IMG/VR virus record: IMGVR_UViG_3300013132_000021 | DNA: 64,000 nucleotides | Reading direction: 5' to 3' (one strand) | Source of the DNA: a virus | In this document: one piece after another, positions 6,856-13,980 of the stretch | How positions within the stretch are numbered: position 1 is the first letter of the stretch | How the letters are laid out: each line of letters begins with the position of its first letter | Notes under the pieces: generated by a model | The model's input: only the letters and a program-made list of their open reading frames with translations | What the model was told of the DNA's origin: nothing | Databases searched by the model: none | Made by a program: the position numbers and the translations under genes

Positions 6856-7092
6856 TTATTTAGCCCACATCAAGTGGTAAGCAGCCATCAACTTGGTGTC
6901 ATAGAATTCTGCTACTAACTGGCAATACATGTCCGTGCGTTCTAAGATCAGTTGACACTGTGAGCGGTCTTGTTGCAAGAGCCAATTGGTATGATCTACA
7001 CCTATGGTTTTATGCACCTTGGGCCAATCAATTTCAATGTTTTCGCCCTCAGCGGGCAGCCACTTTAACAGCTCAATCTTAGATGTCTTCAT
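6856..7092 (-). CDS. hypothetical protein
   Basis: 78 aa, overlaps the helicase stop. Confidence 0.65.
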   Translation of the reverse strand: MKTSKIELLKWLPAEGENIEIDWPKVHKTIGVDHTNWLLQQDRSQCQLILERTDMYCQLVAEFYDTKLMAAYHLMWAK

Positions 7093-8515
7093 CTGTGTTC
7101 ATGCTGTTTAAGATCTCACGCAGTTTGGTACCTTCGACATTGGCTCGCACTTTGGCCACAGGAGCTCCCTGAGCTGGATCGATTTCTCCTGTGACGGGAT
7201 CTGTTCTCTGAAGATCAGTCTTGCGTTTGATCTGTTGGATGATACTGGTACTGCCTCGACTGGCGTTGTTCTGTGTGTCTTGCTCATCTTCTGGTAGATC
7301 TGATATCCTTAGGCTGTCGAGATTGAACTCTAGATCAATCTTTTGGCCCACACCCGAACTGGATCTGGTCTTCATCAATTGCAGCTGATAGCGGCCACGC
7401 TCACGCATGGCTCTGGATGTAAAGATACCAAACACGTTGTCTGCGGTCTGGATCTTGCTCAATCCTCCCGAGATATGGCTGTGATCAAACTCTACTTCTT
7501 CTACGGCACCTCGATTCAACTGTGCTGCGGTCACACACAGCACCTGTTTTTCCATGGCCAAGTTGCGTATTTCTTCAGATACATATTTGTCTTTGACGAA
7601 GAGATTCTCCGCGGAGATCTTCTTACCAATGGGCATCAACAAGTCCATATAGTCTATCAACAGCACGTCGATGGGCTTGCCACATTTGATTTCGTATTCT
7701 TTGACATAGGCTCGTATGTCGTTGACTGTTTTGCCCGAAGGCATGTATTTGATCTGTAACTGTCCCGCTTTCTTACCGATCATCTTGACTTTCATTTCCA
7801 CATCATCAAGATCACGGAAGATTTCTCTGGTAGGCACTCCAGTGATCATGGAATCGATCCGCATACTTACCAGTGCTTCTGAAAGCTCCAGTGTTAGATA
7901 AACCACATTAAGTCCCTGCAGAGCCCAATTTACTCCGAGATTAGCCAAGAACAGACTTTTACCCGCACCTGACCCGCCCGCGAATATGTTAAGCTCTCCG
8001 CGATTCATACCACCAAATAGTTTACGATCCATGCAGGGCCAACCCGTAGAGATCTGCCCGTTCTTGTCTTTGAGCCCCATTAGCCTACCTCGAGGATCTT
8101 CAAAATAGTCTGTGCCCATGTCTCTAGCCAGTCCTATCTGTACCGCGGCTTTGATCAGTGTTTCCACCTCACCGTAGTTGTGTTTTTCTAATAGATCCGC
8201 TGACGCAATGATAGCACGTTCGATGGCTTTGTGACGTGTGAATGATTCAAACTCATCCATGAGCCATTCTAGATGACCATCTTTGACTATGTCTGGTCGT
8301 TTGAGATCTAGTCTACACGATGCATTCACCATGTCATATTCTGGCAGCACTGTGTACTGTTTAGCATATTCATTGATGAACTCTGCAGCATCCTGCAGTT
8401 TGCGATCAAATAGGGTATGGTCAAATATACCTTGACAGCGCACGAACACTTCTGCGTCTGACAGCATTAATTCAAGATATAATTTTTGTACTTCGTATCC
8501 GTAGTCTTTTATCAT
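7079..8515 (-). CDS. gp41: replicative DNA helicase, T4 gp41/DnaB-like
   Basis: Walker A GGSGAGKS, TLELSE, Walker B LLIDYMDL, AAQLNR, LMKTR. Confidence 0.93.
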   Translation of the reverse strand: MIKDYGYEVQKLYLELMLSDAEVFVRCQGIFDHTLFDRKLQDAAEFINEYAKQYTVLPEYDMVNASCRLDLKRPDIVKDGHLEWLMDEFESFTRHKAIERAIIASADLLEKHNYGEVETLIKAAVQIGLARDMGTDYFEDPRGRLMGLKDKNGQISTGWPCMDRKLFGGMNRGELNIFAGGSGAGKSLFLANLGVNWALQGLNVVYLTLELSEALVSMRIDSMITGVPTREIFRDLDDVEMKVKMIGKKAGQLQIKYMPSGKTVNDIRAYVKEYEIKCGKPIDVLLIDYMDLLMPIGKKISAENLFVKDKYVSEEIRNLAMEKQVLCVTAAQLNRGAVEEVEFDHSHISGGLSKIQTADNVFGIFTSRAMRERGRYQLQLMKTRSSSGVGQKIDLEFNLDSLRISDLPEDEQDTQNNASRGSTSIIQQIKRKTDLQRTDPVTGEIDPAQGAPVAKVRANVEGTKLREILNSMNTDEDI

Positions 8516-8521
8516 AGTTTA

Positions 8522-9469
8522 TTATACACTGATCTCTAGGTGTGTTACAACACCAAAATTATAATCCCATACACGCTGTTTTGTATGATACAATACTGCA
8601 CCTACACTGCTGCTGGGATCTCCAGGGTTAGATAATGTCCATCGATACTTGAACATAGGTTCAACTATTTTTTTATTAGCTAAACTATTCATGGCACACC
8701 CGCCCATATATACCAGTGTATCTGTGCCCACAGCAGATCTAGCCATAGTCATTATCAATGAGATCTGTTCTTCGAATACACGCTGCACCGCAGCAGCGAT
8801 ATCCCATCGGTCTTGGTCGCTAGAAATTGGTTCACTCCAATTTGTTACCCCTCGATGAAAGTTATAGGTCACTACTAACACACCATCGAAATAAGATCTA
8901 ATTTTATTATAGTATCTGTTGGAATCACCTAGCACACTAGCCTGTTGCAGTTTATATTCTTCTAGTATAGGTTGGTAACCAATTAATTTTGTAAATGCAG
9001 AATAAAACAATCCAAGACTATGAGGATAATCTCGTCCCCAGATTTTTTTTAATTCTCCGTGCCGGCCTTCCCAGATGCTTGCGCATTCAAATTCTCCTAT
9101 GGCATCTAGCACCACGATTGCACAATGATCAAACGGACTGGTATAATACCCTGCGGCTGCATGACTAGCATGATGCGGAGTATATCTTAGATCGGCGTAC
9201 TGCGTTTTGATTTCTTTGATATAAGTTGACGGTATGTCACTAAAATCAAAAACTCTGTCCCATTGTCCTGCAGACAATTGTCTTAGTTTTTTTAACCAAG
9301 GACGTTCATACCAAAATATTGTGCTAGGTCCTCCGTAGTTAAATGCACTATGAATGATCTTTGTATCTAATTGATCACTAACTGAATGTTCAAGCATCGA
9401 TAATCTGCCATCAGAAAAAACAGCCAGACTACTGCCATGATTAAGAGCGTTAATTCCCCAAGTAATCAT
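8522..9469 (-). CDS. carbamoyltransferase (NodU/CmcH), N-terminal Kae1-like domain only
   Basis: HHASHAAAGYYTSPF, VLDAIGE, SLGLFYSAFT, MGGCAMNS, NPGDPSSSVGA; ends at 315 aa. Confidence 0.85.
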   Translation of the reverse strand: MITWGINALNHGSSLAVFSDGRLSMLEHSVSDQLDTKIIHSAFNYGGPSTIFWYERPWLKKLRQLSAGQWDRVFDFSDIPSTYIKEIKTQYADLRYTPHHASHAAAGYYTSPFDHCAIVVLDAIGEFECASIWEGRHGELKKIWGRDYPHSLGLFYSAFTKLIGYQPILEEYKLQQASVLGDSNRYYNKIRSYFDGVLVVTYNFHRGVTNWSEPISSDQDRWDIAAAVQRVFEEQISLIMTMARSAVGTDTLVYMGGCAMNSLANKKIVEPMFKYRWTLSNPGDPSSSVGAVLYHTKQRVWDYNFGVVTHLEISV

Positions 9470-9582
9470 TTGTAGATAAACGGATCACGTTTTCTCAGCT
9501 CAGCAAGTCTTTTCTTAAATCGCCTGTTTTCTTGAAACTTGGTCCAAGGCCACAGCAGTGTTTCAACTATTTTCTTTATCAT
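9466..9582 (-). CDS. 38-aa basic peptide (not in ORF track)
   Basis: MIKKIVETLLWPWTKFQENRRFKKRLAELRKRDPFIYK*; overlaps the primase end and is ATGA-coupled to the carbamoyltransferase. Confidence 0.65.
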   Translation of the reverse strand: MIKKIVETLLWPWTKFQENRRFKKRLAELRKRDPFIYK

Positions 9583-10594
9583 ATTCTAACCTCTGTAATT
9601 TATGTTCTTGTTGTTGTTTAGCCATTTTAATTTTTATCTGGCCTCGCTGTGCAGTTTTAATAGCATCTACTATCACAAATAATTGACCGTAACGCTGTAC
9701 AGCATCTGCTACATCTTTGACGTCCGGACCCCAATTAGGCATTGCTATGCTCCAATCTAGTTCAGCTGCACGATCAAACAACATAAGTCCAGCTGTGTCT
9801 TGATCCGGTATCACAATAACTTCTGCTTCTAGACTATCAATTATCCTTGCCTGCTGTTCAGCAATTTCATTAGTTAGTAGAGCAACACCCCCAACCGCTA
9901 GAGCGTCAAACGGACCTTCGCAGACAAGTATATACTTCTGTTCTTCCAGCTGACGATCAAAGTTGAATACAAAATGCGGATGTTGATCTGATAGATACTT
10001 TGGTTTTCCGTTAACGATTTTACGAGCGGTATTGCCAACTATACGTCCCTGCCACCTAAAAGGCAAAATAACACGATTTTCATATCCCGGGCTAGGACTC
10101 CAGTAAAAATCGCCATTGTAGGGGTCGTAGCCGCGGTTTACAACATAAGAAATCACTGGTTCGAGTAAAATAGACACGTCTTTGAAATATTCGCTGTTTA
10201 CCCAGTCTAACAAGGGCATTGCACCCTCCGGCAGTTCTTTATCTGTAAATGCGACCTGAATTGCAGATGGGGCCGGCCGGTATTCATCACCTTCTGTTTT
10301 TATCGCTTCAAATATTAATTCTTTCACAGTATCTTCACTAGCACCCATCCAGCGACTCAGTGTTTTCATCTTTTCGCCAAACGGGGATCCTGGTTGCCAA
10401 CCAGTTGTGAATTTACAGTTGAAACAGTTATAGACTATACCGTTGCTGTCAAAACGAATACCGCCTCGTTTGCGTGTGTCCGATTTGTGTCCTCGATGGT
10501 GGCAGCAGGGTGCATTAAACGATGTCCAACCGGAAGGACTGTGTTTGGCACGAGGCGGTAATAGAGCACGGAACTTGTCCACAACGAGAGTCAT
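9563..10594 (-). CDS. gp61: DNA primase, T4 gp61-like
   Basis: Zn-binding PCC...YNCFNC; TOPRIM motifs CEGPFDAL and PDQD. Confidence 0.88.
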   Translation of the reverse strand: MTLVVDKFRALLPPRAKHSPSGWTSFNAPCCHHRGHKSDTRKRGGIRFDSNGIVYNCFNCKFTTGWQPGSPFGEKMKTLSRWMGASEDTVKELIFEAIKTEGDEYRPAPSAIQVAFTDKELPEGAMPLLDWVNSEYFKDVSILLEPVISYVVNRGYDPYNGDFYWSPSPGYENRVILPFRWQGRIVGNTARKIVNGKPKYLSDQHPHFVFNFDRQLEEQKYILVCEGPFDALAVGGVALLTNEIAEQQARIIDSLEAEVIVIPDQDTAGLMLFDRAAELDWSIAMPNWGPDVKDVADAVQRYGQLFVIVDAIKTAQRGQIKIKMAKQQQEHKLQRLEYDKENS

Positions 10595-11462: not shown

Positions 11463-11837
11463 ATGAGAATATCAACTAACCTACAAGAAAATTTTCCGTT
11501 CATCAGCGTTATCAACCACGTAAATCACGAATATGTTGGTATAATTATCAACCAAGATGCTCAGGTTACCAGTATCTACGATTACAGCAGTATTCGTACA
11601 GATCTCGAAAAACAACAGTTTATAGAACTAGGCGAAACATGGTGGTGGGAATCAAATAGACAGATTCCTATCAATATCTTTCTAGCAAAAGAACTGGCTA
11701 TTTTCCGGTATGTGGTCAAGACCTTTTCTACCAAAGATGTCAAGGTACTATTTGGCCCCTGTACCAGTCTCAATGATATCATAGTCAAACGTGTGAAACG
11801 CAAATCGATCACACTGGTTAGAAAAATATCTACGTGA
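11463..11837 (+). CDS. hypothetical protein
   Basis: 124 aa with WWWESNRQIPINIF; full TATAAATA box at 11406-11413. Confidence 0.75.
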   Translation: MRISTNLQENFPFISVINHVNHEYVGIIINQDAQVTSIYDYSSIRTDLEKQQFIELGETWWWESNRQIPINIFLAKELAIFRYVVKTFSTKDVKVLFGPCTSLNDIIVKRVKRKSITLVRKIST

Positions 11838-12408
11838 ATCCGTAGCTGATACTTTCACATATTAAGTTCATCTGCACCACGATAGCCACAGCATAGGCCG
11901 TAGCGTGGCTTTTCTTAAAGTAGTATTCGTCAGTCTCTGGTTTGATCCAAACTTCTTTCATTATCTCCGTCCAAGACTTCCCAATCAAATGCCTCTTGGC
12001 TGGCCGTATCATGGCAAGGACCGCAGCTAATTGTTCCACGGAAGTAGGGCAACACTGTTTCAGAATTGCACCATGGCCATTCAAATGAAATAACAGATCG
12101 ACGAACTCTTGTTGTTGAAGTAGATCCCATAGAGGCTCCTGATTCATTAATTCCACTTGATGCGCTTCATCGCGAACACCTTTGTAGATACCAACATTTA
12201 AAAAATCTATCTTGAAATATCCTTGCGTTTCTGCTTGATCATAGGGCACAGCACAGACATTGGCCTCAGCATTTACTGGAACTGCGTGAAAATAAACACC
12301 GGTATTGTGTTTGACCAATTGACCGCTATCTACACGACTGGCCTTGATGTGCTTAAACAGATCAAGTGCAGAATCTCTATCAACGAAGTCTATGTCGATG
12401 TCAGGCAT
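11830..12408 (-). CDS. miniaturised DNA polymerase III alpha (DnaE/family C) catalytic core
   Basis: PDIDIDF, KHNTGVY, GYFKIDFLNV, LAMIRP and YYFKKSHATAYA in DnaE order within 192 aa. Confidence 0.8.
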   Translation of the reverse strand: MPDIDIDFVDRDSALDLFKHIKASRVDSGQLVKHNTGVYFHAVPVNAEANVCAVPYDQAETQGYFKIDFLNVGIYKGVRDEAHQVELMNQEPLWDLLQQQEFVDLLFHLNGHGAILKQCCPTSVEQLAAVLAMIRPAKRHLIGKSWTEIMKEVWIKPETDEYYFKKSHATAYAVAIVVQMNLICESISYGFT

Positions 12409-12409
12409 T

Positions 12410-12610
12410 TTAGTTCCAAATAAATTCTAGATCACCCTGTGCGATCTTACGCCATTGACTAGAACCTGGAGTTGTGTGCGGTGTATATACCTCGCCGGTC
12501 TCTTGATCAATCAGCATGTATTTTTGTGGGCACTTGGTTTTAATGGTGAGTATCACTGGAATTTCCAGCTCTTCGACAGATTCTCCGTTTTTTAAAGTTC
12601 TAGTCATCAA
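12410..12610 (-). CDS. hypothetical protein
   Basis: 66 aa, translationally coupled in the operon. Confidence 0.65.
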   Translation of the reverse strand: MMTRTLKNGESVEELEIPVILTIKTKCPQKYMLIDQETGEVYTPHTTPGSSQWRKIAQGDLEFIWN

Positions 12611-12837
12611 TGTATCCTTGTGGTTTCAAACAACAGTAATGGCAATGTTTCTGCAAGAAATTCTGCGTAAGCTTCTGCATCTTCTACATCTGCAAAGTTA
12701 GTAAACTTCACGTAAACAGCAGGCTCTTCATCACTAGTATACATCACTTCTATCTCGATGTCTTCGTCTGAAATAAAAGTTTCATTTTCTGCCAACTCTT
12801 CTACCACTTCTTCCACCTTGGGTTTTTTCGGCATCAC
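12607..12837 (-). CDS. acidic hypothetical protein
   Basis: 76 aa, Glu-rich, ATGA overlaps on both sides. Confidence 0.65.
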   Translation of the reverse strand: MMPKKPKVEEVVEELAENETFISDEDIEIEVMYTSDEEPAVYVKFTNFADVEDAEAYAEFLAETLPLLLFETTRIH

Positions 12838-13517
12838 AGTATCTTAGCTTCCTTGATGACATCTCGTACCAGTTCTAGATCTTCAGGCAATTCTTTAAAT
12901 CTACGCAGCCAAAACTGCGGATCGATCACTGGACCAACTATGGCCAGCTGTTCATCATTCATCTTCTGCAGCATGGCCTTGCCTTCTCGAGTATTTAACA
13001 GGATCCAAGGAGAGATCAATCCTTCTTTGATATCATGTGTGGCACGATTGAGATTCACATAGGCAAAATAGTGTTCCCAAGCACTGTGATTCTTTTCACT
13101 CCAGGCCATCATGTTCTGTATGGTTCTTTGTATGGCTCCGTCTGCGGGTTCTAACTTGATCAATTCACTGATGTATGAATCATATAACTCATCGCGACAC
13201 CAGTGATCTAACTTGACTCCGCTCTTGATCACAAAGTCAATGAATCGTTCAGGATAGATAGGGGCAGTATTGATCATGAAACTGCCAAACTTCACAAATG
13301 CAGTATAGTACGGACTGGCATCAAATTCGTCAAAGGTTTTAACTGATTTGGATTTTTGTGTGAGATCGTAAAATCGTTGGAAGGTGATCAGTCCCATCTG
13401 TACATGTCGTTCATCTCGACTGAGATAACGACGTTTTTGTTCACAGACATGCACAAACAGAGTCTTTTCCTTAGCAAATGCTTTACCGCAGTATTCGCAC
13501 TTAAAGTTTAAGTCCAT
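12834..13517 (-). CDS. C2HC/C2H2 Zn-finger-containing protein
   Basis: FKCEYCGKAFAKEKTLFVHVC at the N-terminus; start reassigned to MDLNF. Confidence 0.75.
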   Translation of the reverse strand: MDLNFKCEYCGKAFAKEKTLFVHVCEQKRRYLSRDERHVQMGLITFQRFYDLTQKSKSVKTFDEFDASPYYTAFVKFGSFMINTAPIYPERFIDFVIKSGVKLDHWCRDELYDSYISELIKLEPADGAIQRTIQNMMAWSEKNHSAWEHYFAYVNLNRATHDIKEGLISPWILLNTREGKAMLQKMNDEQLAIVGPVIDPQFWLRRFKELPEDLELVRDVIKEAKIL

Positions 13518-13980
13518 GGATCTGCTTTTTGTCCCAACCAAGGTTCTCACAGTACTGTTTGATTTCTTGATCTGTGGTGAGTTCTGCCAGTGTTTCAATG
13601 TCTGCTCGCTTCATGTTAGGAAACTGTTCTGCGATGAATTCTTCTTTTTTGTTCTTGCGTGTTTTCAGAGGAATCCATTCGTGGAAGTGTGTTTTTTTCG
13701 ATTCGTGGCTGCAGAGGCATAGAGTCTGCCATACCAATTGCGGATGCTGTTGTATATCAGCCCAATGCTTGTTGTAGTATTCATTGACGGTGAGTACATA
13801 GTGTTCCTGCAGTTCTGAATTGGAGGATTTAACTGAACTGATATAGCGATTGAGATTCCAAAAATCACCTTTGATTTCTTGGCGACCTTCTTCGGTGGCA
13901 GCGTCCCAAAGTTCTTTGATCCCCATGTCTACTGCAGGAATCATATCTTTGAATAGATCTACGTGTTTATTTTTTCCCAT
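13501..13980 (-). CDS. clamp-loader small subunit-like (T4 gp62-like)
   Basis: Size (159 aa) and FWNLNRYISS...LTVNEY...QLVWQTL...HEWI pattern resemble the gp62 family; replication context. Confidence 0.5.
   Translation of the reverse strand: MGKNKHVDLFKDMIPAVDMGIKELWDAATEEGRQEIKGDFWNLNRYISSVKSSNSELQEHYVLTVNEYYNKHWADIQQHPQLVWQTLCLCSHESKKTHFHEWIPLKTRKNKKEEFIAEQFPNMKRADIETLAELTTDQEIKQYCENLGWDKKQIHGLKL

Follow-up and report, generated by a model that had tools for sequence, protein, structure and literature searches.

The window, the 64,000-nucleotide stretch of DNA analysed here, lies within a 129,780-base IMG/VR contig that is estimated to be 36% complete. On its minus strand, ORF calling and translation place at positions 11830-12408 an ORF encoding a 192-aa protein (P0001, hereafter also the C unit) that begins with M-PDIDIDF. 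KHNTGVY is found at residues 33-39, GYFKIDFL at residues 63-70, PTSVEQLAAVLAMIRP at residues 121-136 and YYFKKSHATAYA at residues 162-173, and the motifs all run in DnaE order; the first-pass annotation, which had the ORF opening at PDIDIDF and listed these DnaE motifs after it, described the protein correctly in this respect. The PDIDIDF strand (residues 2-8; 12385..12405, minus strand) corresponds by motif to the DxD of DnaE PDFDVDF and holds the first two metal-binding aspartates, D5 and D7, while GYFKIDFL (12199..12222, minus strand), with K66 and the third catalytic aspartate, D68, is profile-aligned to GLVKFDFL of E. coli, within residues 538-641. Two finger motifs follow: R135-P136 in AMIRP (12001..12006, minus strand), aligned to ALFRPG of E. 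coli alpha, and K165-K-S-H168 in FKKSHA.AYA (11905..11916, minus strand), aligned to FNKSHSAAYA in E. coli alpha 741-768. D5, D7 and D68 span 64 residues, in agreement with the earlier statement that the Asp triad falls within ~70 aa.

A single base separates the ATG of the C-unit gene from the stop codon of the 66-aa ORF directly upstream (12410-12610, minus strand), and 4-nt overlaps occur between ORFs further upstream. The 66-aa product matches the last 55 of the 559 positions of phrog_4098 (E 1.6e-12) and, from this match, may be a free-standing version of the C-terminal domain found in a larger phage protein. Also on the minus strand are a Zn-finger protein (12834-13517; phrog_11058), with a CxxC...H...C finger whose zf-C2H2 match is below the cut-off, and a 159-aa protein (13501-13980) whose only match is phrog_11758 (E 1e-11). 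The latter had been called gp62-like, a label that the searches do not support: Pfam and NCBIfam returned nothing for it, and phrog_11758 has no annotated function. A convergent 124-aa protein is encoded on the plus strand (11463-11837; phrog_11637). Downstream of the C unit lie a gp61-type primase (9563-10594; phrog_47, E 1e-31) and a DnaB/gp41-type helicase (7079-8515), so that the coupled operon adjoining primase and helicase, as originally described, is recovered. Between these two genes there is a carbamoyltransferase-like or Kae1-like gene of 315 aa (8522-9469, minus strand), for which tblastn gave no counterpart in the loci around the C unit of Atu_ph07, Phosso and RaK2, though primase and helicase are found there. 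Promoter and terminator scans around the operon did not rise above the shuffle level.

P0001 matches phrog_11778 ('DNA polymerase', ~197 aa) over residues 3-186 (E 5e-66), and the full-length DnaE profile phrog_405 matches it in three collinear stretches, at profile positions 441-453, 577-678 and 774-809; the DnaE motif set in P0001 is therefore not due to chance. When a family profile of 91 representatives was searched against the PDB sequences, only Pol III alpha chains were retrieved, the best being E. coli 2hnh (E 6.8e-6), with family positions 54-140 on 2hnh 538-641 and positions 153-179 on 741-768. Pol III alpha was reached by the family profile only, a phmmer search of the PDB sequences with the single protein P0001 giving no match. 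The Pfam search of P0001 likewise gave no family, PF07733 included, and its score against NF004226 (PRK05673) was 14.7 bits, the cut-off being 1002, so the full-length cellular DnaE architecture is not present. The 6 kb around the C-unit gene gave no megablast match in the isolate phages; 96 jumbo-phage records match the C unit at 80% coverage or more.

The AlphaFold2 model of P0001, built with the family alignment, has a pLDDT of 96.7 and a pTM of 0.88. Its first 17 Foldseek matches in the PDB are all family-C polymerases, and VIA-align scored 14 family-C chains at Z 6.1-9.6, the next match reaching only 3.6. In these superpositions residues 1-192 lie on E. coli Pol III alpha 400-784 (Z 8.7, 184 aligned, rmsd 4.0), and the model also lies on Taq 461-841 (Z 9.4) and on PolC 971-1358 (Z 9.6). 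The superposition on DnaE that had been proposed as a check thus gives Z 8.7-9.6 over 184-190 residues, and phrog_11778, the PDB profile search, Foldseek and VIA-align all agree with the family first assigned. Together, the profile and model comparisons indicate that the C unit is a family-C (DnaE) polymerase homologue that has kept its catalytic aspartates. Large internal deletions had also been claimed, and they are evident: 192 residues cover E. coli 400-784, that is, ~385 residues, which fits the loss of much of the fingers and of the thumb-sized insert that in DnaE separates the DxD strand from the third Asp. The PHP, clamp-binding, HhH and OB parts, stated from the start to be absent, are indeed not in a C unit of this length and span.

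A DnaE profile search of complete relatives found a second small ORF, hereafter the N unit, in Phosso (177 aa, phrog_405 positions 362-436), RaK2 (172 aa, positions 357-429) and Atu_ph07 (177 aa, positions 389-437). These matches, within phrog_405 357-437, finish right before position 441, where the C-unit match starts, and all three proteins close with GVGRGSS.SY.L..IG.H.V.S..Y.LD..EFL, then N/K/E, then the stop; the complete relatives taken together, G002 (below) among them, also show R after EFL. N units have a total length of 156-177 aa, depending on the clade, and score above the Pfam cut-off for PF07733 (Pol III alpha NTPase domain; model positions 12-95, E 1e-11 to 1e-13). The AlphaFold model of one N unit, modelled alone and not as the fused form, is confident over residues 50-150 and superposes on E. 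coli Pol III alpha 273/275-397 with Z 9.2-10.5. The 45-85 residues that precede the PF07733 match in N units are predicted with low confidence; in the N unit of the IMG/VR genome G006 (L106:1360-1830), residues 1-48 have a pLDDT below 50.

Because the N unit aligns structurally to E. coli 273-397 and the C unit to 400-784, the two units abut. The cut between them runs through the Pol-beta-type palm, after the GRGS-loop helix and before the DxD strand, which leaves the C unit with the metal ligands but without the GRGS triphosphate-binding motif and the preceding palm helices. The first-pass annotation had stated that the gene is 'not one piece of a split gene'; this does not hold, since complete relatives encode the N-terminal palm half as a separate, distant protein and rare fusions join both.

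In complete relatives the two units are 34-224 kb apart. The IMG/VR genomes G002 (100% complete), G003, G004 and G006 carry the N unit, with 160-185 kb between it and the C unit in those genomes for which the positions of both were read. Both units are present in four of the four complete genomes tested (Atu_ph07, Phosso, RaK2 and G002) and in the fragments G003, G004 and G006. In the isolate-phage collection, where the N-unit tblastn also picks up full-length phage DnaEs, the counts of C and N units by host genus are 34 and 34 for Escherichia, 11 and 11 for Pseudomonas, 11 and 10 for Klebsiella, 8 and 8 for Salmonella, 8 and 8 for Erwinia, and 4 and 4 for Xanthomonas. The protein collection holds at least 8000 N-unit homologues.

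Immediately after the N-unit gene, Phosso (L008:1761-2222, plus strand), Atu_ph07 (L010:1081-1491, minus strand) and G002 (L099:1231-1470, minus strand) carry a small gene. The three products share a motif like VAV.G....(R)[MV]NARGD.L...G.I, a likeness that suggests a partner gene conserved beside the N unit.

Natural fusions of the N and C units were found in three clusters (P0222, P0272 and P0273; 375-376 aa, 78-100% mutual identity), from independent metagenome samples. They join the N unit to the C unit by a short linker (...EFIKDNKEGIYNIADFDIDT...) and pass the PF07733 threshold. The gene for P0222 (L105:1066-2193) stands in a locus like that of the C unit, preceded by small ORFs and followed by a convergent one.

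Co-folding was performed with P0001 and the N unit of a relative, G006; the C unit of G006 and P0001 share 74% identity. Three runs gave ipSAE values of 0.91, 0.92 and 0.91, while the best of three controls reached 0.01; the runs have at least 94% of their contacts in common, and the partner pLDDT is at least 78. The pair thus passes a mark that is reached by 58 of 80 solved complexes and by 2 of 110 mismatched pairs, although this pass may reflect likeness to known structures, since solved Pol III alpha has both parts in one chain. In the predicted contact, residues 2-9 of P0001 (the DxDxD strand) lie against W116-G117 of the N-unit WGVGRGSS. The co-fold model supports binding of the N and C units.

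The window's own contig was searched for the genes that accompany the C unit in relatives. No N unit was detected in its 129,780 bases, either by tblastn with three N units or by HMM against all ORFs of at least 70 aa (noise, E >0.09), and PF07733 had no match anywhere in it. As to a family B or A polymerase in the genome, which had been suggested as a point to check, PF00136 gave no match in this 36%-complete contig, while in relatives a family-B polymerase (PolB, ~890-900 aa) is present in G001, whose C unit is 96% identical to P0001, in G002 and in G004. The gene order in G002 and G004 is C unit, ~155-160 kb, PolB, ~25 kb, N unit; in G001 (280 kb), 162 kb separate the C unit from PolB, and the N unit is expected ~6 kb beyond the contig end. 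The C unit lies at 117.4 kb of the window's contig in the opposite orientation, so that PolB and the N unit are expected ~45-70 kb before base 1. Synteny with G001, G002 and G004 therefore suggests that this phage has both genes, beyond the contig end.

We conclude, with a probability of about 0.88, that the product of 11830..12408 (minus strand) is the C-terminal unit of the split, minimal form of DNA polymerase III alpha known from group 2.2 jumbo phages, with predicted Mg2+-binding and template-binding functions; the assignment draws on the ORF, phrog_11778, the AlphaFold2 model and VIA-align. The C unit would consist of the DxD strand, the third-Asp strand and a much reduced finger region with the IRP and KSH motifs, and alone it would be only half of a Pol-beta-type nucleotidyltransferase palm. 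The palm helices and the GRGS triphosphate-binding loop would be supplied by the N unit, the two units assembling into one palm of ~300-360 aa in total. In this assembly, GRGS of the N unit and R135, K165 and H168 of the C-unit fingers would hold the incoming nucleotide, D5, D7 and D68 would bind two metals, and the reduced fingers would contact the template; the palm would then carry out two-metal nucleotidyl transfer beside the family-B replicase. From the data above we infer N-C binding, a DNA-polymerase product and a role in the replisome. The first-pass annotation had considered the protein as a possible catalytic subunit of a multi-subunit enzyme; it was right in spirit as to the enzyme being multi-part, but the evidence favours the distant N unit over the 12834-13517 and 11463-11837 products that it had named as partners.

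The place of the gene next to primase and helicase is conserved and for this reason suggests a priming-linked or repair role for the split enzyme. Templated DNA synthesis is not assured, however, because the thumb and any known processivity or DNA-holding module are absent. It is conceivable, though doubtful, that the two-piece enzyme is a nucleotidyltransferase without templated synthesis, which could work as a terminal transferase, serve in primer extension or hand-off, or make a nucleotide product. The missing thumb-sized insert, clamp-binding, HhH and OB parts would fit such an enzyme, as would the full family-B replicase of the relatives, and the Pol-beta fold superfamily includes many non-polymerase transferases. 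Against it, the DnaE finger motifs IRP and KSH are nearly invariant and the gene lies within a primase-helicase module.

Returning to the split polymerase, we can offer only a speculative view of its wider function: the split mini-Pol III might not serve as a back-up replicase but be a dedicated partner of primase and helicase, beside whose genes the C unit is always found, for instance extending primers before hand-off to the family-B polymerase, or else a non-templated nucleotidyltransferase, and its encoding by two distant genes could gate assembly in time. Bacillus DnaE, for comparison, extends primers before hand-off to PolC.

The second alternative is that the C unit is completed by its neighbours, the products of 12834-13517, 13501-13980 and 11463-11837, instead of or besides the N unit. 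In Atu_ph07 and Phosso the C unit is accompanied by all three, by a virion-annotated protein and by primase and helicase; RaK2 has most of this set, including two of the three. The arrangement persists despite a C-unit identity of 39-54%, and the genes are moreover translationally coupled. From their conserved place, the three small neighbours may be accessory factors of the replication module. However, Pfam, NCBIfam and PHROG searches matched them to no DnaE part and to no annotated family, conserved order within a replication module is no proof of binding, and the missing palm half is already accounted for by the N unit. We regard completion by the neighbours as unlikely, an accessory role being compatible with all of these observations.

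Far less probable is the proposal with which the analysis began, that of a stand-alone, repurposed 192-aa mini-polymerase whose core is self-sufficient after internal deletions. All three aspartates and the finger motifs do sit in one small, confidently folded protein, and the contig holds no partner gene. Yet this protein starts at the DxD strand and is without the GRGS loop and the palm helices that precede it, and every complete relative tested has those parts on a separate, abutting protein (E. coli 273-397, as against 400-784 for the C unit). The natural fusions and the co-fold (0.91, best control 0.01) likewise speak for two halves of one enzyme. We therefore set the stand-alone proposal aside in favour of the split polymerase, of which the missing GRGS half would be the N unit.

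Conservation was assessed over 91 full-length representatives with less than 50% mutual identity. K66, D68 and P136 are present in all 91, R135 in 90, D3 and D5 in 89, H34, G37 and H168 in 88, and D7 in 87; K165 is found in 83 representatives, and a further 6 have R at this position. A library at 50% identity holds 424 cluster representatives with E of 1e-3 or less for the C unit, and the 90%-identity collection at least 8000 C-unit homologues; among the matches listed nearly all are exactly 192 aa, and most of the environmental ones are ~75-85% identical. Nei-Gojobori dN/dS of P0001, calculated against two unsaturated orthologues, is 0.14 against L017 (dN 0.026, dS 0.19) and 0.12 against L018. 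These comparisons indicate that the C-unit gene is under selection. The homologues, whose conservation had been proposed as a check, thus show neither the Asp loss nor the neutral decay that was named at the outset as speaking against a catalytic role: the triad is kept in 87-91 of the 91, and dN/dS is ~0.12-0.14. A decaying or catalytically dead DnaE remnant with a structural role, to which the drastic size loss relative to cellular DnaE might point, is hardly credible with the catalytic residues retained to this extent in such divergent representatives, with dN/dS at these values, with a length of 192 aa fixed across thousands of homologues and with a confident fold.

The right annotation for 11830-12408 would consequently be the C-terminal unit of a split mini-DnaE and not a self-sufficient polymerase. 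If the two-chain enzyme is true, its ~300-360 residues would make it the smallest family-C polymerase module known, and both halves, with at least 8000 homologues each, are very abundant in environmental giant phages. The fusions P0222, P0272 and P0273 offer handy single-chain constructs for biochemistry.

Iyer et al. 2021 (Viruses 13:63, PMC7824862) recognised, on the basis of sequence, a split minimal Pol III alpha among group 2.2 jumbo phages. It accompanies a family-B polymerase, with a possible one-strand or repair role, and has been proposed as a model for the catalytic core of an ancestral Pol III (PMC7824862). Our literature search returned no bench work on the split enzyme, only this description and genome papers that annotate 'DNA polymerase III DnaE'.

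With bacterial DnaE (E. coli 2HNH, Taq 2HPI/3E0D, M. tuberculosis 5LEW) and PolC (3F2B), the enzyme described here shares the Pol-beta-type palm with its DxD and D ligands, and FRPG/IRP and NKSH/KKSH occur in the same order in the fingers, with Z 8.7-9.6 over 184-190 residues. Unlike them, it has its palm in two polypeptides, with the break between the equivalents of E. coli 397 and 400, and is without PHP, clamp-binding, HhH, OB and tau-binding regions. Cellular DnaE (PRK05673; PF02811 + PF07733 + PF17657 + PF14579) is multidomain, an architecture that P0001 does not have. The full-length DnaEs encoded by group 3.2 jumbo phages and by Bacillus phages (for example phage G and PBC2) have a homologous palm, and the N unit matches them by tblastn; these, however, are host-like single-chain proteins with a PHP domain that act as the main phage replicase, whereas the split enzyme is minimal and stands beside a family-B polymerase.

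In size, in its start at the DxD strand and in its motifs, P0001 equals the group 2.2 C unit (phrog_11778). It also shares the primase/helicase neighbourhood of the group 2.2 phages RaK2, Atu_ph07, Phosso and PA5oct, to whose C units it is 39-54% identical, and its relatives have a separate, distant N unit and a family-B polymerase. We found no difference of substance from the group 2.2 C unit; the C unit of the window is a further member of the family described in 2021 (PMC7824862) and not a newly found type, and it belongs to a clade that is very abundant in the environment.
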